From Squalus acanthias (taxonomy: Eukaryota), in the NCBI GenBank assembly GCA_030390025.1, contig CM059431.1, positions 127,846,001 to 127,910,000 of the forward strand: a DNA stretch of 64,000 bases, read 5' to 3'. Position 1 is the stretch's first letter. The number at the start of each line of letters is the position of its first letter. Below, piece after piece: positions 18,739 to 32,596 of the stretch. The notes below the pieces were generated by a model. It was not told where the DNA came from, made no database searches, and worked only from the letters and a program-made list of their open reading frames with translations. The position numbers and the translations under genes were made by a program.

Positions 18739-20459
18739 TGTAGAATTCGCAATATATCGCGATTTTATTAATAAGGAGAAAAACACATAGTTTCGTTCAA
18801 ACAGCTTTTATTTCAGCAGAATGCTGTCAGGTTTTCAAAGTGGACACAAGCAGCTGTAAAATGGCCGCCGCACCTCGTGGCAGAACATTCTAGACTTTTC
18901 AACAGGCAGACAAGATGGCGTTCCAGTAAACATTTGTGCAAGATCGATTAAGACTCAGCACATTGAAGATAATACACGAGACATCATGGGTTTACAGTAT
19001 ACACATAAATACTGAAATCGGTCTCCCAGGTGCGAATAAGAGCTATTGTACCAAGTAATCAAGAATCCATCCAAAGACATTAATATGTAAAATCCCAACG
19101 ACTCTACGATGAGAGAGCCGTTAGCGGGTAGTTACAGAAAACACTTGGAAGCCCCAAAACCCCTCCGGGGAGAACACCGACCGATTAAACAATGGGAGAA
19201 ATATTAACAGGTACTCAGACATTTACGAGTAGCCCCGAAACCCATTAAAACGAAGATCACCCTATACAAGACATTTGAGCGCCAAACCCTAACAAAAGAA
19301 AAGACATTAAGGTTGGGCGGGAAACGGAAGATTTTGCACTATAATTGCAAGCTCCAAACCGTCCATCTTTCTCTTGACTCTTGACTCTTGACTCTTGACT
19401 CGTATCCTCGTGGCTGCTCTTGACTCGCCGTCTTGTTCCTGCTTGCCTTGTGTCTCTTTTCAAAAAGACTGTTGAATTTTTACGATCCGCTCGAATCTAC
19501 CTCGTGTCGTGTCGCGAAGACCTGTGTAGAACTGGGCTCTGAAGCCTTGAAGCGGGCGCTCCATTCCGATAAGTCGGTAAACGGTGTTGGAACCGAAGGC
19601 CCGAGATGAGATGAGATGAGATGAGATGAGATGAGATGAGATGAGAAGAGAAGAAGACCATACTTATCGCCACGGTCAGTAAGCCCCGACCACGCCTGTA
19701 GGTCGAATAGACATTTTCCTTGCCAGGAAGACTTCTTTGAGTTCTACAGAACTGACACAGGAAGACTCTTCTTCGAATTTTATCGCATCAGTGCGAGGGC
19801 ACAGGAAGACTCTTTTTTTGAGTAGAGTCGGAACTCCGAGGACAACACAGATCTTCATGACAGCAGACGTTCCAGCCTGCTAGCCGGAGCAGAAACGAGT
19901 AAACAAGTGGGGCCAGGAGACCCCCTGATCGACACGTGGGCGCTGCGGTGAAAAACATCCGATCAGAGTTTTCGGAATTCTCCGAGTTATCACGAGTGGT
20001 GAGCATGAGTCTCGAATCCTACGAATCTAGCTTAGGACAGATATTGATAGGGGTGGGTTTCAAGTATTAAGGATAATTGTAATGTGTGCCCCCATTTACG
20101 ATGTGTCGTTCGTTCCTCGTTTCCCCGAAATTAGTTACATAACTGCGTGTAAGATTGTACTGTCATTAATCTGTGCTTATGACATGTATTTCGTAATCTT
20201 AAGTATTATGCAATAAAGATTTTCCATTTCGTACCATTCAACCGAGTCTACCTGAGTTTCATCTCCATTACTGCTCTCGCATCTAAGTCCAGTGTCTAGA
20301 ACCGTAAGGGCGAGTGGGTCGAACCACTCACAGGTGTGTCTAGTGCTCCCAGACTGGCTGGAGACCAGAACAGGCAACAAGGCCTAAACCCGCACTAGCA
20401 CCCGGGCTGAGCACAGAGCCACACGAATCTCACAGGCTGAGAGCCAAAAAACCCTTACA
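18739..20459 (+). repeat. 5' LTR (~1.72 kb)
   Basis: tgtagaattcgc…cccttaca; homologous over its whole length to 30929-32596; AATAAA at ~20212; internal (gagat)n at ~19603-19645. Confidence 0.92.
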
Positions 20460-20463
20460 GAAA

Positions 20464-22271
20464 ATGGCGACCGCGGCAGGACACTGGCAGCGAGAGGGTA
20501 GTGTGTTAGATTTTGGTGTGAATGTACGAAATGTTATGCAGGAAAAGATAGCAGATTATGTGTTCGGATAGGTAAATCTAACTAAGAAATGGATAAGTGA
20601 CCTGTTAGCAGATAAGAGTCCACTAGAGGCAGCCGAGAGGTGGACAGATAGTAAGGAACATAAAAAGACAGTCGAGAAAGCAGTCTGGTTAATGTGTTAC
20701 AAAAGGCAGGTCCAGATTTCAAACCAGGTCATTACAGCGCAAACAGCTCGGATCAGGCATTTAGAGGAGGAAATGGATGAGAAAGTCTCTGGAGGGGAGT
20801 TGCTCATTAGGAATTTAAGTGTGCTGCACCGAGAACGCCAGGAAATCACCAGTCACCACAAAGCAAAAATGGATTACCTCGAGTGCCAAGTCACTGAGGC
20901 AAAGTTAAGTGAGGGCAGACTAAAGGAACGATGTGCCCGCCAAGCTGCCCAAATAAGAGCCCAGGAAGAGAGCTTAACGGGGGTTAGGGCGGCATATAAG
21001 ATGGCCCTTGAGGATAAATTTCAGGGGGCCGATCATAGCGCCTGCCAAAAGAGATAGAGCACCTTAAAAGGGCCGTGAACAAAGCGCACGGCATGGTGTG
21101 CCTTATCAGTCCGTCAGCACACCAGCCGCTAGTAGATGAGGAGTTTCAGAAATTCCCACCAAGTAAAGCAAAGGACGTATTAGCCACTACGCCCTCCGCG
21201 CCACCCAGCTATTCGGAAACCTGGGTAAGGGAGGAAGTAGTAGAAGAAACAAAAGAGCCCACTGAGGGAGAAGTGGAAAAGGGACCGTTGTGTCCAGTTA
21301 CGGGTATAAAAAGGGGCCCAAACAGAAACGGTGGGGAGGAACCAGGGGATCTCCTCAACCAGCTTGTGTTGCCTCACAGCTCACACCAGCTGAGAGATAT
21401 GATAAATCACGTACGGAAGCTGACCGAGTCAGACGACCCTTCCGTACATTTCAGAGAAGTTGAGCAAACCGCAGCCATTAACGGCTGCGATGATGGGGAA
21501 ACAGCAAAAATGCTGTTATTTTCGTTAGGCAGTTCAATCCTTCAGTGTCTCTCGGACGAGAGCAAGAGGGGAACCAAGACATATGAGGCATTAAAAAATG
21601 AAGTCCTAGAAGTGTTGGGGACGGACGATGAAGGTCCGTTTGCTAGAGTGGGACAGACAGTGCAGATGGAGGGAGAACCCCCGAAGGTTTTTGCCGACAG
21701 GCTGTGGCCAGTATATCAACGCAGCTGTCCAGGTGCGCCAGAGCGCGATGATGTGGACGGCGTCGGTTTAACTCATTGGCTCAGGTGTATAGTAGCCAAC
21801 AGTTTGCCAGCCGTCAGAGAGCAGGCAAAAGCGTGGTTTGATCCCACTGACCCCAACATTACGGAAGAGTCGGTCTTAAATCGACTCACGGTAGGATACC
21901 GCAATATAAGGGGTATGGGAACACGTCCCCTTAAGGGAAAAGTACATGAGGTACGACCCGCAGCCCCGGCTCAAAAGGAGTGGCATCAGGAGGGTAACCG
22001 CGCCCCGCATGCAAGTAATGCTTGTTACGGGTGTGGGAGGACAGGACACTGGCGCAAGAACTGCAGGAACCCTTGGAAGGATTCCAGGGATAAAAATCCC
22101 GCAGCCCGAGCCCAGATGCCTGTCTCGGTTAGGGAAGCTAGTGCACCCACCCCTCCCGACGACCTCGAAACAGTGTTGGGAGCCATGCGCAACTTCATGA
22201 GTGCACATGGAAAGGTGGCGGTTGCTACCGGCCCCGCAGGTGCCACAGCCCCGTCCAATAGTACCCAATGA
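20464..22271 (+). pseudogene. gag: gag (~600 aa; in-frame TAG at 20569, 1-nt frameshift at ~21050)
   Basis: ATG 20464 is in frame with ORF 20692-21057; N-terminal coiled coil, PSAPPSY, MHR-like QMEGEPPKVFADRL, zinc knuckle CYGCGRTGHWRKNC (22023-22064). Confidence 0.88.
20465..20482 (+). promoter_or_regulatory. Primer-binding site, tRNA-Arg(UCG)
   Basis: TGGCGACCGCGGCAGGAC is complementary to the 3' end of vertebrate tRNA-Arg-TCG (…GTCCTGCCGCGGTCG-CCA, recalled sequence); it lies 5 nt after the LTR. Confidence 0.85.
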
Positions 22272-23417
22272 CTAGAGCCCACGCAGCCTGCCTACCTGTG
22301 TCCTTTTAAAAGACACGCACAGGAGGGCGTCTCCTGTGAGGAGGCCAGGTTAAAAGAGCAGGCCTTGCGGGAGGAGAACGCCCACTTAATAGGGAAAATA
22401 GATGGGCTAGAAGAGCAGCTTAGAGAGCAGGCCCTGCGGGAGGAGAACGCCCGCTTAATGGGAAAGTTAGACGTGCTCAGGCTAGAAGGGCAGCTTAGAG
22501 AAATAAAAGCAGCCTACCAGGTAGCCAGAAGCAGGGATTTAAATCAGTGCAAACTGTACAAGCCAGGTGCACAAGGGAAAACCACAGGGGCAAACCCTGC
22601 GAGTGGGGACTCGCAGCCCCAGGTAGGACCACAAGGCACACAGGCAGGCAAAGCAGCCTGCATCAGGGAAGGAGGCATCCTGGAAAATTGTGAAACATTT
22701 TTGTGGGGTTGGCAGTCAGATGAGGGAGAGTTCCAGGAACTCGAGTCAGATGAGGATAGTGATGAGGACGAGTGGGAATCGGGGAACGCAAGGGTCGCCC
22801 CCGATTCAGGTATAGGGAGGACAGGGGCTGCAGATAGAGATCCACACAGGGTGGACACCCAGGCTGCAGGTCCCGAACACAGGAGGGAGGAGCTAGGGGA
22901 GGCGGAGCCAGCCACTGTGGGACCACAGGGCGGGACGGCGGAAACCTCAGAGCCCGAGCCGCCCGCCTTGAACGTCCTGCCCTCGGGGGAGGTAGGGACT
23001 GCGAGTGAAGGGCCGCCTGCTGGGCCGAGCAGGGCGGTGCCACAAGCTGCAGGTCCCGAGGTCAGGGAGGCGGAGTCAGGGGAGGCGGAGCCAGCGACTG
23101 TGGTGGGACCACAGGTCGTCCCGGTGGAAGTCTCGGAACCCGGTCCGTCGGTCCTGGGATTCCTGCCCCCGACAACTCCTCGTAGGTCAAGTAGAGCACC
23201 CCAGCCCAGGAAGATGTGGTCATGGCCCCAGACTGCCCCAAGGCGTAGACTCAAGGTTAAGGCAGCCCAGGTAGGGCCCGGTCCCATCGCAGCAGCAACA
23301 GGCTGCGGCAGATCAAAGGAAGGGGTCAGTGCAGCCACAGGCTGCGGCAGATCAAAGGAAGGGGTCAGTGCCCTCCCAACGTCGGGAAGAGCTCGCAGCA
23401 GCCTTCTCAGAATTTAA
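22272..23417 (+). CDS. ORF2: uninterrupted ~381-codon frame after the gag TGA-CTAG; coiled-coil, acidic and Pro/Glu-rich; no pol motifs
   Basis: Same frame as gag with no stop between 22272 and 23414; internal repeats EQALREENA x2, QAAGPE…GEAEPATV x2, AATGCGRSKEGVS x2. Confidence 0.65.
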   Translation, partial: LEPTQPAYLCPFKRHAQEGVSCEEARLKEQALREENAHLIGKIDGLEEQLREQALREENARLMGKLDVLRLEGQLREIKAAYQVARSRDLNQCKLYKPGAQGKTTGANPASGDSQPQVGPQGTQAGKAACIREGGILENCETFLWGWQSDEGEFQELESDEDSDEDEWESGNARVAPDSGIGRTGAADRDPHRVDTQAAGPEHRREELGEAEPATVGPQGGTAETSEPEPPALNVLPSGEVGTASEGPPAGPSRAVPQAAGPEVREAESGEAEPATVVGPQVVPVEVSEPGPSVLGFLPPTTPRRSSRAPQPRKMWSWPQTAPRRRLKVKAAQVGPGPIAAATGCGRSKEGVSAATGCGRSKEGVSALPTSGRARSSLLRI

Positions 23418-23723
23418 AGGGGCCGCCCTGGGAACGGGCGGCGCTGTACAGTAATAAGTTTAAGTTTAGGATAAGTTTCTAGGTTTATAGCTTAAGGTTA
23501 AGAATAAGTTTATAGTTTTAAATAAGGTTAAGTTTGTAGTTTAATTTTAACAGAAAATGGTAAAATGATGGGAGCTTTAGAGATAGGTCTAGTTAAAGTT
23601 TATTCAGTGAACATTGAAGTTTACGTGAGGCGAGGTCAGGGGACCCGCTCACCCTTCACAAAAGCCAGAGACTCTTGCGAGGCTGGCTACCTCATTCTAT
23701 CTGATCACAGGAACCAAGGAAGG

Positions 23724-25030
23724 ATGGAACGAATTCTAGTATTGCTCGCGGCAATCGGATGTGGATTGGCCTATCGAGGCCGCACCAAGGATGTCGTGGT
23801 GTTTGGATGCTCCGGGGACACGGCCCCCATCGCGGTGGATGGGACCGGAAGACGGGAGGCTGAGGAGACCACCACCTATTTCCACAAGGGAAGGTGGCCA
23901 GGATGGCTGGGAACAAACTCAACGGAGTATTCTAGCACATCGGGGTTTGCCTACCAAGAGACTTCTTTAATGTGCCCCAAAGTAAGGATCATCGCACCCA
24001 GAATCAGCGTCACTGTCGGCAAACGGATTTGTTTGACTTGTAATGGGAATGTCCCATTGAGCCGATGGTGGTGGCTGCGAAAGCTGAGCAAAAACATGAG
24101 GAACTCTTCGGTCGAGTGGGAACGACTGGGTAATAATACCCATCGGACAATTACGGGGACAAACGGACAAGTGAGAGTCTGTTGGGACAAATGGTGGGAA
24201 CCGGATGAGGGAATTTAGGTATGCATGTGGGGGTCAAAGTACGCTTGCCCCAAAGGCATCTCCATATTTTTCATTAACGAATGGCAGGATAACGGACAGG
24301 GGATGAGGTGGGATGCGAGCACCAGGGGGTGCGGAGCCCCATACTCTTCGATCCCGGTAAATGCCACTGAGCTCATTACGCGCTCACGCAAAGCCCCGCC
24401 CACGATTCCGGTGGTTCTAGCTGAAGAGGAAGGGTGCCCTAAAACTAGTAAGGGACCCGGGAATGGTTTGGTACTGGTCCCCACAGACCAGATACTATTT
24501 CAGGGGGTACATTACGCGGTGGCCTCGGTGATTTTAAATCTCACCGAGGTACGGTTACCAGAGTGGTGCCCCAAAAAGACGGAACAGTTGTATCAGGTCC
24601 TGTTGACCAAGATGTTCAGACAATTTTACGAATTCGATTTCGCGGAAATTGATAAAACAAGTTTGTACACCGCACCACATGAAGTTTTGGATCAAGTAGG
24701 GAGGCAAAGAAGGGGTGTAGTGAACGACGCGTTCACTGCTTTTAACACGGGTACATCTGTGGTCAACGCTCTAGACAGTGTGGAGCTGCAGACCCAGATT
24801 AATGGTTTAAAGACGCAATTAAAAGACATTCTAACAGATGAGAATAAAGTGGTTGGGTCGGGTTTACACGAGGACCAAGCCATGACTCTCCATTTAAAGG
24901 AAATTATAGCAGAGTTAGAGAAACATGCGAAGACGGTAAATGCCCTGATTAGAGAAGATCGGAATGCATCCGATCAAGCTGCGCAGAATGAGGTGTGTGT
25001 GCTTTACGGGGCGTGGTTACTGGGCATTTG
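23724..25030 (+). pseudogene. env: env: signal peptide + Ig-like domain + class I fusion protein (paramyxo/pneumovirus-F-like); one in-frame TAG at 24216; C-terminally truncated
   Basis: Signal peptide MERILVLLAAIGCGLA; ORFs 23565-24218 and 24225-25160 share a frame; furin site RQRR (24702-24713) followed by GVVNDAFTAFNTGTSVVNAL and a heptad repeat; candidate splice acceptor ttctatctgatcacag ending at 23710. Confidence 0.8.
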
Positions 25031-27211: not shown

Positions 27212-29330
27212 AGGGAGAAATTGGTCCTGGTGACAGTCATTTCCTAGAAGGAAACCATGGGCAAATAGCACTAATTTGGGGGCGAAACAACCCCAAGGGC
27301 ACCGGAAAAATATCCAAGCCCATTCAAGCGACATTCAGGTATACCTGGGGTGGCAGGTAAAATAATAATGATAATAACCATCCCTCAACGTGCAGCTGGT
27401 GTGTAACCACAAGAAGGAAATTTTGTATGTTTGCGCCAAGTACCCTGGCAGTTGCCATGACTCGTTCATCCTGCGGCAGTCTAGTGTGCCTCCGCTCTTC
27501 AGTCCGCCAAACCAACTTTGCGGATGGCTAGTTGGAGACAAGGGCTATCCCCTGAAGACGTGGCTAATGACACCATTCAGGAGGCCATTCAACGAAGCTG
27601 AGGAGCGCTACAACTCCAGCCACATTTCGACCAGATCCATTATCGAGCAAATCATCGGCTTGCTGAAGATGCAATTCAGATGCTTTGATAGATCAGGTGG
27701 AGCCCTGCAGAACTCAGCAGCCAAGGTATCCAGAATCGTCGTGGTCTGCTGTGCACTTCACAACATGGCACAGCATCGTGGCTTGCAGCTGCCTGAGGGA
27801 CAAGTGGCTCAGTGCATAGCCTCCTCAGATGAGGAGGAGGAGGATGAGGAGGAGAGTGAGAACGAAGACCTTGCGGAGGCGCATCAACCAGCGGCAGTAG
27901 CACGCGAGAACATTGCTGCCCGGGATGCAAGGGATGCACTGATCTTGGCCAGATTTGCTTAGGCTGCCCAATCAAACACATTTGGCTCGCACCTTCTTAC
28001 CACACCATCGACAATGGACAAGAACCTGTGGCTTCCTATCACTCTGACCACCATACTGACAAATCCAAGTCGTCCTGAGCCCTCAATGTGGAATTTCCAT
28101 TTGCGAAATGACACAGCCCACAACTTCAACAGTTTGCCATCACTTCATTTTATAACATTCAGTAAAGGATGGCATTTCACAATTAAACACAACAGAACAC
28201 TCAAGTAACTACCCTTGTGACTACTTGTGCTTTATCTTCCTCTTACGCGTGCTCCTACATGGTGCTTCCACTGTGGCTTCAACAGATGTGGAGGCCCCTT
28301 GCTCACTTTCATGCTGCTTCTGCCGCGACACCTTTGGCGGGTGTCCTCTGGGGTTGCGAGCCTGTGAGGGCTCGCCAACAGTCTGCTGCTCCTGCGGCTG
28401 TGCAGGGGCTGAGATGCCCATCTCAGTCGGTTGAGGACTCTGGTGGGGCTCTGACCGAGGGCTCCGCAGTGGCATGCGAGTGTGAGGGCTTGGAGAGGAG
28501 CCCCCACTTCCTTGTTGTCTGCCACCAACATCCCTCTATTGGGTCAGACCGACTTCAGAGCTAGCAAGTGGCTTGACAGCACCTTGCTGCACTTCAGGGG
28601 GGCCATGAGGACCCATTTCTGAACTGGCAGTCCTACTCCAGAGGACTTCCATGAAGCTCTGGTTTCTCTGCTCAATAGCTGCAGAGATGTCAGTCCAATC
28701 TGAACAATTACCATGTTTTCAAGACCTTGGCGACTTAGCTCCTCCATGACCGTAGCCATTCTCTCCTCTACCGTAGCCATCCTTTCCACGGAGGTTGCCA
28801 TCCTTTCCGTGGTGATGCATTCAAGCGCCAATGCCTCTACAAAGGCTCTGCTCATGTTAGCGATGGATTCCTCCATCCTCTCCACACTCGCAGTGACCCT
28901 GGAGACAAAACCTGCCAGAGACTCCTGCACCTGTTCCTGGAGTTCCATCACCGCTCTCCTCCTGGATGGACCCAGAGGCACAGGGTCGACATGCAGCTGA
29001 GCCGAGCTGGGAGCACCCTGCGGCCTCCGACGAGGACTCTCCACTGCTGTCCCTGTCTCCACCATCTGCTGATGCTCACTTGTGAGCTGTGATACACCAG
29101 TTGACAACACTACTCTATGTCCCGAAGGTTCCACCGAAGTTTGAGTGTCTGCGCTGGTGCTGGGTGCGCTTAATTCTGATGACGCTGCACCCTCAGAGGT
29201 TGTAGCTTCCTCTGAGGAGTCTGGGGGCTCAGGCTCTTCTTCCTGGACAGTGGGGAGGGTGGCTGTCGATGGTCCTGTGGGGGAGTAAAGGAAAGAGTTA
29301 GACATGTGATATAAACGTCTAATTGCCTGC
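27212..29330. mobile_element. Internally deleted Harbinger: transposase C-terminus (+, ~27380-27962) and last Myb-gene exon (-, ~28221-29275)
   Basis: SLNVQLVC…[11 protein letters not shown]…[10 protein letters not shown]…CCALHN; convergent low-complexity/coiled-coil ORF ending RSTRKRKIKHK; TIR-like gggagaaattgg at ~27212. Confidence 0.85.
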
Positions 29331-30519
29331 CAGAATGGGTAGGGATTAGAATTCACAGTGGGAAATCTATAGAACTACTCTACAAATGCCTTCTAATCCA
29401 AGTATCACCAGTTTGATGGAGATTGAAGTTAATAGAAGAATCAATTTAGTATGATTACTTTGATTTCCTTTAGCTATTCTTGCTGTGATACACCCCAGTT
29501 TCCCATTGCAGGTTTTTGATCTCCACTTCGTTTCAATTTCCAGAATTATAGTCTATCGTTTTTGCAGTTACTTGAATCCTACATCAAACAGTAACTGTAA
29601 ACGTTTGATATGGTATTAGTTAGTTGTGTATTATTTTCCTGCTATTCCCCTTTTGATTACCAAATAGAATACCAAATGGAAATGAGTGACTATTGCAAAA
29701 GTTAGAGTAAAAGCAAGATGGGGGCTGAATTTCCATGATGGTTTTCCCACTCGACCTCCATAACTTTGCAAGAAGAGCAGAGGTAACCCTGGAAAAAACA
29801 ACATAAATACCATTTACACCGTTTTCCCAGGGTTTATGTGACTCTTCAAAGCCTCCATCGAAGATATAGCGGTCACGCAGAGGAACCCCTGTGGATATTC
29901 ACCTCCAATATATCATCATTCCACAGCAGCAATCAATGGCAGGGATTACAGTTTGGTAGTCCTTGCTGAATGGAGGGCAGCACATTATGCTGAAAGTCCT
30001 CAGGAAAGCTTTTCCTCACATCACCCTCTGATGTCAATTATTATAAAATAGTGAAAGTATTTTCTCGCATGCAGCATGAGACGGGAGTGCTGCAGTCTGG
30101 GACCGTTAGTACAGGGAGTCACGACATGTGGGATCAAGGCATTGGTTGCATATTGTGGAGTTCTGGAGGTACACTGGTCTGGGTTGATTGGGGAGAGGTG
30201 TCTTAGTTTCCTGGATGATTGAGGGGGTTAGGGTGTGGAACTATTGGGCTGCAGCGATGTGGTAGTGCTGGGGAAGGTCTGGAGACTGGTAGCATTTTGG
30301 GGGGAGTGAAAAAGAATGAAGGATATACAACTTCATGAATTCCTCTCTGCAGAGTGTGCAAAAGTGCTTTACCATCTTAGTGCTGGAACAGCCTTTGTGA
30401 AACACTAACTCCACCAGAGAAAAGGCTTTTCCAGGAATGATCCAAGAACCTGCTTAACGGTTTGTAAGCAATTATTGTTTTTAAGTTCTTTAGAGTGGGG
30501 GAAAGGCACAGGCGATCGG

Positions 30520-30928: not shown

Positions 30929-32596
30929 TGTAGAATTCGCAATATTATCGCGATTTTATAAATAAGGAGGAGACACATAGTTTCGTACAAACAGCTTTAT
31001 TTGAGCAGAATGCTGTCAGGTTTTCAAAGTGGACACAAGCAGCCTGTGAAATGGCCGCCACGCCTCGTGGCAGAACGTTCTAGACTTTTCGATAAGCAGA
31101 CAAGATGGCGTTCCAATAAACATTTGTGTGAGATCGGACAAGACTCAGCACATTTGAGATAAATCACAAGACATAATGGGTTTGCATTTTACACATAAAT
31201 ACTGGAATCGGTCTCCCAGGTGCGAATAAGGGCTATTGTACCGAGCGATCAAGAACCCATCCAAAGACATTAATATGCAAAATCCCCACGACTCTACGAT
31301 GAGAGAGCCGTTTGCGGGTAGTTACAGAAACATTTGGAAGCCCCAAAAGCCCTCCAGGGAGAATACTGACCGGTTACACAATGGGAGAAGTATTAACGGG
31401 TACTCAGGCAGTTACAAGTATCACCGAAACCCATTAAACGGAGATCACCCTATACAAGAAGTTTGGGCGCCAAAACCCTGACAAAAGAAAAGACATTAAG
31501 ATTGGGCGGGAAAAGAGGAATTACAGCACTATAACTGTAAGGTACAACCGTCCATCTGTCTCTTGACTCTTGCATCTGCCTCTTGACTCTTGGATCCTGA
31601 CTCTTGCTGCTCGACTTGCTAGAAGACTTTTGAACTTTCTGATCCGCCAGGATCAACCTCGTGGCTTGCCGCGAAGATCTGTGAAGAACTGGGCTGTGAG
31701 GCCTTGAAACGGGCACACCATCCCGAGAAGTCGGTAAACGGTGTTGGAACCGAAGGCCCGAGATGAGATGAGATGAGATGAGATGAGATGAGAAGAGAAG
31801 AAGACGACCATACGTATCGCCACGGTCAGTAAGCCCCGACCGCGCCTGTAGGTCGAATAAACACTTTCCTTGCCCAGGAAGACTATTCTTTGAGTTTTAC
31901 AAACTGGCGTGAGGGCACAGGAAGACCATTCTTCGAGTTTTATCGCATCGGGGCGAGGGCACAGGAAGACTATTTTTCGAGTCGTGTCGGAACTCCGAGG
32001 ACAACACAGATCTTCATGACAGCAGACGGTCCAGCCTGCTAGCCGGAGCAGAAACGAGTAAACAAGTGGGGTACAGAGACCCCTGATCAACACATGGGTG
32101 GTCAGGTGCTGCAGGAAAAACATCCGAGCAGAGTTTCGGAATTCTCCGAGTTATCACGAGTGGTGAGCATGAGTCTCGATCCTACAAATCTAGTTTAGGT
32201 CAGGTATTGATAGGGGAGGGTTTAAGTTTTAAGGATAATTATAATGTGTGTCCCCTTTTACGATGTGTCGTGCGCTCCTCGTTTCCCTAAAATTAGTTAC
32301 ATAACTGCGTGTAAGATTGTACTGTCATTAATCTGTGCTTATGACATGTATTTCGTAATCTTGAATAATATGCAATAAAGATTTTCCATTTCGCACTATT
32401 CAACCGGGTCTACCTGAGTTTTCTCTGCATTATTGCTCTCGCACCTAAGTCCAGTGTCAGAACCGTAAGGGCAAGTGGGTCGAACCACTCACAGGTGTCT
32501 AGTGCTACCAGGCTGGCTGGAGACCAGAACAGGCAACAAGGCCTAACCCCGCACTAGCACCCAGGCTACGCACAGAGCCGCAGGTCACCCCTTACA
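30929..32596 (+). repeat. Solo LTR, same family as 18739-20459
   Basis: TG…CA ends; 4-bp TSD CAAT on both sides (30925-30928 and 32597-32600); no PBS after it and no PPT before it. Confidence 0.92.

Follow-up and report, generated by a model that had tools for sequence, protein, structure and literature searches.

Can a leaky stop codon at the end of gag stay in use once the enzymes encoded beyond it have been lost? This question is raised by an endogenous retrovirus (ERV) in a 64,000-nt stretch of the Squalus acanthias genome (GCA_030390025.1, contig CM059431.1, positions 127,846,001 to 127,910,000, forward strand). The whole stretch is called the window below, and coordinates are counted from its first letter. 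In this element, gag ends in TGA followed by CTAG, and the same frame continues as a second open reading frame (ORF), ORF2, ahead of env. Our proposal, which is tentative, is that the window holds a broken copy of an abundant, helper-dependent ERV family with a deleted pol, in which a leaky gag stop is followed by an in-frame chimeric pol remnant whose translation may be kept for the benefit of the RNA that encodes it.

The gag stop codon and its context

The TGA (22269-22271) closes the gag frame, whose opening is at 21039, and CTAG comes next. The heptamer TGACTAG was found once in the element, at 1 of the 55 TGA trinucleotides in 20464-25025, where the expectation for CTAG from base composition is 0.4%. 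Protein comparison gave three relatives of the window Gag (3 matches among 6165 candidates), 47-57% identical to it, one of them from skate, in keeping with a cartilaginous-fish host. The same aligned Gln was the last residue in the window Gag and in all four full-length Gag relatives, a fifth relative being a fragment. Therefore, the TGA is the gag stop of the family and not a mutation private to this copy. A Pfam zf-CCHC match (E 0.0015) was found in gag, and zinc knuckles were the sole matches of a Gag profile compared with PDB. The Gag relatives gave coiled-coil-type Pfam matches on residues ~80-190, under the cut-off, and the skate relative (P0001) had Retrotrans_gag and Ty3_capsid as its Atlas look-alikes. 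A foamy-like identity of the ERV was disfavoured, as fish foamy-like Gags are devoid of Cys-His boxes (PMC5210030; statements on this and the other papers cited below refer to the accessible parts of each).

The gag gene of the window copy had two lesions: a stop codon in frame (20569-20571) and, near 21050, a frameshift. At neither site do other copies agree with the window, so these lesions are private to this copy. With gag broken upstream, the window copy is unable to make the fusion from the first ATG.

An earlier sequence-only reading of this DNA had recognized UGA-CUAG as a known readthrough context. The motif indeed matches type II sites, with UGA followed by CUAG in frame with a long downstream ORF. 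UGA-CUA by itself gives 1.5% readthrough; readthrough is efficient in four vertebrate genes with UGA-CUAG, and its level in UGA-CUAG genes reaches up to ~31% (PMC4132726). The heptamer UGA-CUAG is identical to that of alphaviruses and of OPRL1, OPRK1, AQP4 and MAPK10, which represent type II (UGA-CUA/UGA-CGG) (PMC3159437, PMC4132726). A 3' stimulatory stem-loop, which is a conditional feature of UGA-CUA sites, was not clearly present here. A 3' hairpin was considered as a readthrough stimulator (z -1.17, -2.51 and -3.33 in three 3' folding windows) and was unsupported over the background of the element. Furthermore, type II is not listed for retroviruses in the accessible text of a 2026 review (PMC13517186), which gives UAG-GGA, UAG-GGC, UGA-AGA, UGA-CGA and UGA-AGU as retroviral contexts and contains neither the string "lokiretro" nor a retrovirus with UGA-CUA. 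An in-frame gag/pro stop downstream of the zinc knuckle is likewise found in gamma- and epsilonretroviruses and in XtERV-S. Murine leukaemia virus (MuLV) uses UAG with a pseudoknot, whereas here the stop is UGA-CUAG and the downstream product is without enzymes.

The motif was also found in the lokiretroviruses. In the supplement of PMC7947760, inspected by eye, gag ends in TGA-CTA-G in Loki-Ofa, Loki-Cne, Loki-Pyo and Loki-Sau, and the protease motif LLD[ST]GS lies further on in the same frame; these junctions are 4 of at least 17 TGACTAG matches there. In Loki-Lro and Loki-Dcl, the annotated pol shares its frame with a TGA-CTA-A, and Loki-Tfu has TG-N-CTA-A, which is ambiguous. TGA-CTA thus stands at the gag end in at least 6 clear cases and 1 ambiguous case out of 24 lokiretrovirus consensus sequences, a count from which line breaks may hide matches. 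Ten of the 24 sequences are annotated as continuous gag-pol frames, and the heptamer of Loki-Lch is out of frame. The words "readthrough", "stop codon" and "frameshift" are all absent from the accessible main text of that paper, and the motif was absent from the Odin supplement (0 matches in 10 files). In the literature searched, which lacked most Repbase reports and most papers behind subscriptions, readthrough at UGA-CUA(G) was nowhere described for retroviruses or for elements with long terminal repeats (LTRs). The idea that autonomous relatives carry TGA-CTAG ahead of protease was therefore supported at a distance, in this broader group (four lokiretroviruses with TGA-CTAG, two with TGA-CTAA and pol), no close autonomous relative having been recovered. 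Judging from the sequences, TGA-CTAG at the end of gag is probably an inherited gag-pol readthrough signal, and the relatives together with the literature make readthrough at ~1% or more likely.

Composition and origin of ORF2

Past the gag stop, the frame stays open for 381 codons, up to a TAA at 23415-23417. As the sequence-only reading had stated, there is no ATG near its start, Met being encoded solely at codons 63 and 315. No stop-free frame arose in 5000 base shuffles or in 5000 first-order Markov simulations of 1143 nt (mean, 12-13 stops), and the remaining two forward frames of the region have 18 and 16 stops.

The product of this frame had been taken for a non-Pol protein. With ORF2 as the query, a word-indexed protein search returned no match, and Pfam returned no enzyme domain. 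An exhaustive search among 1.84 billion representatives returned a single match, P0007, with which ORF2 residues 90-351 align at 37% identity over 265 columns (E 1e-27), a score reached by none of 300 shuffles. P0007 opens inside the C-terminal SH3 domain of integrase, its residues 12-49 giving the Pfam matches SH3_Tf2-1 (E 0.0022) and Integrase_p58_C (E 0.1), both under the curated cut-offs. The alignment begins at the NQCK motif; the first 49 residues of P0007, save the last few, have no counterpart in ORF2, which retains NQCK from the P0007 motif GPY...DK.SP...KWFHINQCK. Lokiretrovirus integrases end in H[IRAV]NQ[IL] followed by K or R (17 matches, with 14 distinct protein ends among those listed). 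By eye, P0007 and these integrase ends have the common pattern GP-x-x-I-x-DK-x-SP ... KW-x-H-x-NQ-x-K, which need not be exclusive to lokiretroviruses. A PDB sequence search with P0007 gave nothing meaningful.

On the strength of this homology, the last ~290 of the 381 ORF2 residues, about three quarters, are very likely the end of Pol, starting within the final strand of the SH3 domain of integrase. By its sequence, ORF2 is a chimeric pol remnant and not a non-Pol gene, and the earlier label has to be dropped. It is very improbable that the readthrough signal was handed to an unrelated captured gene. Such an origin would agree with the lack of a Pfam enzyme domain in ORF2 and with residues ~14-89, which are not Pol, but it is already contradicted by the homology of residues 90-351 to the integrase C-terminal tail.

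Protease, reverse transcriptase (RT), RNase H and the integrase core are absent between gag and env. AlphaFold predicted residues 22-93 of ORF2 as one helix, with pLDDT block means of 89-98 over residues 21-80, and the remainder as disordered, with low pLDDT. When the helix was aligned with Gag coiled coils, the score was reached by 2 of 1000 shuffles for P0002, 59 of 1000 for the window Gag and 232 of 1000 for the skate Gag P0001. No significant DNA-level match of the helix region to the gag, LTR or env of the window was found. The helix probably derives from a Gag coiled coil, to judge by these alignments. The first dozen residues of ORF2 resemble, by eye, the linker between stop and protease in Loki-Sau and Loki-Pyo (P-T-x3-Y-L-x2-aromatic), and this first part is likely a leftover of such a pre-protease linker.

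Lokiretroviruses are recognized by an RT that is sister to those of other retroviruses and by a dual RNase H (tether plus RH) (PMC7947760). The element itself is without the RT and RNase H region; its Gag layout and integrase end motif fit membership. As in lokiretroviruses, its Gag has a coiled coil ahead of the capsid, a layout that is not exclusive to them. Unlike the published lokiretroviruses, which have short integrase tails, ORF2 has a far longer one. Among the rows inspected in PMC7947760, lokiretroviruses were recorded in 0 of 3 and 0 of 1 cartilaginous-fish genomes. Zebrafish BHIKHARI (bioRxiv 2024.03.25.586437) is likewise related to lokiretroviruses, without pol and endowed with a Gag that has an N-terminal coiled coil. 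It has a single gag ORF, whereas the window family retains a pol remnant and env.

Layout of the element and its neighbourhood

The element consists, in order, of a 1721-nt LTR, gag, ORF2, an A+T-rich spacer and the 5' part of env (Table 1).

Table 1. Positions of the element's parts and of a related LTR in the window
Feature	Position	Strand	Description and basis
5' LTR	18739..20459	+	1721 nt, TG...CA ends, AATAAA at 20212; 86% identity, across 1.7 kb, with the downstream LTR (30929-32596)
gag	20464..22271	+	N-terminal coiled coil, capsid region, one CCHC knuckle; two lesions in the window copy
TGA-CTAG, gag stop in type II readthrough context	22269..22275	+	Sequence; stop position common to relatives; motif also at lokiretrovirus gag ends
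ORF2 part 1, ~13 codons, likely leftover start of the pre-protease linker	22272..22310	+	Inferred from position and by-eye likeness
ORF2 part 2, long predicted helix (residues 22-93) with 69-nt duplication	22335..22550	+	AlphaFold; origin from a Gag coiled coil probable
ORF2 part 3, C-terminal tail of Pol (integrase), starting in the last SH3 strand	22539..23417	+	P0007 homology; predicted disordered; 183-nt and 39-nt duplications
env 5' part	23724..25025	+	Signal peptide, possible Ig-like domain, candidate start of F-type ectodomain, RQRR cleavage motif; stop 24216-24218
Solo LTR, same family	30929..32596	+	Own flanking 4-bp duplication CAAT; not the 3' LTR of the element

The downstream LTR copy was rejected as the 3' LTR of the element because of its own CAAT duplication, from which the left flank of the 5' LTR differs. 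It is therefore a solo LTR, so that the 3' end of the element has been lost and dating by LTR-LTR comparison is impossible. This solo LTR sits 6 kb downstream of the truncated element. Between it and the truncated env lie a putative Harbinger-like transposase fragment, so labelled by its motifs, and an opposite-strand partner frame (27378-27962 and 28221-29374). The match of env to other copies ceases at ~25025, and in three of the four runs compared (see below), other copies continue past this point among the rows listed.

At the 5' end, the first gag ATG overlaps the position of the primer-binding site (20464-20482), 5 nt past the LTR, so that the site provides the codons of the first Gag residues; the skate Gag relative likewise starts with MATT. 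The primer is presumably tRNA-Arg. The strongest predicted RNA structure of the element (21372-21491; z -5.96, rank 1 of 74 folding windows) lies within gag, where the capsid region starts, and is a possible cis element. ORF2 and env are separated by an A+T-rich array of TAAGTT type (23420-23560), which ends in the acceptor-like TTTTAACAG. A second candidate splice acceptor is found immediately upstream of the env ATG.

The env translation has a signal-like N terminus and the RQRR site, is interrupted by the in-frame stop, and is missing its transmembrane part in the window copy. Its top Atlas look-alikes were Baculo_F and Fusion_gly (0.93-0.94, low recognition). No Pfam F match and no meaningful PDB match were obtained for Env, and its structure model had a pLDDT of 35. 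Lokiretrovirus Envs are like the F protein of paramyxo- and pneumoviruses, with a signal peptide, an RxKR site, a fusion peptide, a coiled coil and a transmembrane segment (PMC7947760). By eye, the window Env has a basic cleavage site and the start motif GP-x-x-G-[ILV]-x-L, as they do, and may likewise be of F type. It differs from them in that their start motif directly follows the signal peptide, with no extra N-terminal domain, and in that their hydrophobic fusion peptide is longer. In the window, ~220 extra residues (23775-24440) stand between the signal peptide and the start motif; this segment gave a weak Pfam Ig_3 match (E 0.075) and beta strands in the low-confidence model.

Other copies and possible reasons for an open frame

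The stretch was wholly or partly present in 20 of the 23 listed runs, from nine studies. Four runs (organisms A, A, B and C) were compared with the window, and 32 of the ~7500 aligned pieces were listed. ORF2 was covered in all four runs, from three organisms, with all 30 bins filled, and two contigs (records 11 and 12) bridge the gag stop and extend into the helix region. The family is abundant, with 6019 contigs aligned from one DNA run and pieces that differ by 4-18%, although depth is not copy number. Twelve of the listed pieces overlap ORF2, with 3.7-18.5% other letters. In every one of these, including five with gaps, the net length change was a multiple of three, in agreement with the sequence-only reading. 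No loose ends were seen at 22272-22330, the expected point of divergence of a protease-bearing relative, among 24 listed of 462.

How could such a family work? The stretch from protease to integrase would have been replaced, in frame, by a helix of ~75 codons of probable Gag origin. LTR-driven genomic RNA would be translated into Gag, and a few percent of the ribosomes would insert a residue at the UGA and continue for 381 codons. For an intact copy, the readthrough product would have ~980 residues and comprise Gag, the helix and the integrase tail, without enzymes; it may be packaged in particles, as the sequence-only reading had proposed. Reverse transcription and integration would be supplied by helper enzymes. 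In the last and least certain step, the benefit would act in cis: an RNA with a multi-kilobase stretch past the gag stop may be shielded from nonsense-mediated decay (NMD), favoured in its own packaging, or both. We favour such a benefit because env and the LTR leave kilobases after the gag stop, because low-level readthrough can inhibit NMD (1-5% readthrough; PMC5360307), and because there is a precedent in IAP 1-delta-1.

IAP 1-delta-1 of the mouse is likewise non-autonomous and abundant, with an internally deleted pol and an open gag-pol fusion frame that has been kept, and its deleted gag-pol fusion is reported to aid its own retrotransposition in cis (PMC6466679). Two features of this kind of element, a frame-preserving internal deletion of the enzymes of pol and amplification as a family, were both found here. 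In IAP 1-delta-1, however, the deletion takes part of gag and makes a direct fusion, whereas here gag is whole, stop readthrough is needed, a helix is inserted and env is kept. Besides, no sequence evidence makes the window element an IAP, which is betaretrovirus-like, and cis action is put forward by analogy only.

Is the frame under selection at all? The earlier description of the lesions (two in gag, one in env and none in ORF2) and of the frame-keeping duplications in ORF2 was accurate. All three duplications have periods that are multiples of three (69, 183 and 39 nt; chance, 0.037). The absence of lesions from ORF2 had been pointed out, but in the window copy it is no evidence of selection: at 3 lesions per 1035 gag and env codons, 381 lesion-free codons have a P of ~0.33. 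This nonsignificant test would suit a neutral leftover, in which the frame stayed open behind a leaky stop after an in-frame deletion, and fast copying of a few master elements spread this arrangement with no selection on ORF2. So would the G+C content of 60% and the low T content, which reduce the stop rate (one antisense frame has just 3 stops), and the lack of an outstanding 3' structure. Against a neutral history stand the duplications, the intact stop motif, and pieces 14-17% divergent in or entering the inserted helix (records 2 and 11) that keep the net frame. We regard this history as unlikely and selection on the open frame of ORF2 as fairly likely; in our analysis, a cis benefit may be its main reason, a view held at slightly under an even chance.

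Several points, besides the lesion test, weigh against our proposal. The 3' hairpin ranked 17 of the 74 folding windows of the element, and its pairings change in longer context. The linker label for the start of ORF2 rests on a by-eye likeness. The pieces from other copies were judged by net length and not by translation, so that internal stops would escape notice; two of them (records 14 and 28) have two gaps with a net change of 0 and may carry short local frameshifts, and those covering the tail only may derive from autonomous copies. Three low-depth joints in ORF2 jump over lengths that are not multiples of three (113; 211, with 2 letters between; and 88). No run recorded as RNA was among those with the stretch, and two runs presumed to be RNA cover the element with contigs that carry neither strand nor level. 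Finally, the search for a close autonomous relative in which protease follows the stop was negative, both by Gag alignment against proteins of 1085-3095 amino acids, which is weak evidence, and in metagenome scans with the Gag alignment and a 19-nt junction pattern.

The fusion protein itself may instead be what is selected, with its second helix pairing with the coiled coil of helper Gag or Gag-Pol, or with its long acidic/basic Pol tail having a trafficking or chromatin-targeting role in particles. A well-predicted 72-residue helix was gained, not just left, and was lengthened by an in-frame duplication; segments of the tail, such as residues 90-137 and 302-351, show conservation with P0007; and the tail far exceeds those of published lokiretrovirus integrases. 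However, the shuffle counts given above make the likeness to the Gag helix weak, and matches between coiled coils reflect composition. ORF2 is predicted to be disordered over three quarters of its length and tolerates large duplications there, and the conservation with P0007 may go back to an autonomous ancestor. A selected protein thus seems a minority explanation, improbable but ahead of a neutral history. A broader reading is also doubtful, at about the level of that neutral history: F-enveloped fish retroviruses would make Gag-Pol through the host-type UGA-CUA(G), and a pol-less shark lineage would exploit this signal to set the amount of a novel protein in its particles. This protein, Gag extended by another Gag-type coiled coil and by the integrase tail, would recruit helper Gag-Pol or steer the helper machinery to the element's own RNA.

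It is quite improbable that ORF2 yields an accessory protein of its own, whether translation begins at Met63 or uses a spliced RNA, with UGA-CUAG as a relic. Accessory frames are frequent in fish retroviruses, and Met63 has G at +4. This codon, however, belongs to the second repeat of the 69-nt duplication, the first having ATA there, and has T at -3. Moreover, no acceptor with a pyrimidine tract was found by pattern in 22201-23760, a weak test that missed the env acceptor candidates too, and no high-depth splice-like joint into ORF2 was present among the joints listed (15 of 17).

Pol-deleted elements with fusion frames are already known from IAP 1-delta-1, and the window family is a variant of these rather than a new category. 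The lokiretrovirus pol genes with a UGA-CUA(G) junction were annotated from downstream start codons, and these annotations would need correction if readthrough is confirmed. UGA-CUA(G) would then be an added readthrough class for retroviruses, with the same motif as that of vertebrate host genes. A high-copy, helper-dependent family with a leaky stop and an enzyme-free open pol frame would be a natural system for testing why defective retroelements go on translating junk, be it for RNA protection, for packaging in cis or for a new protein.

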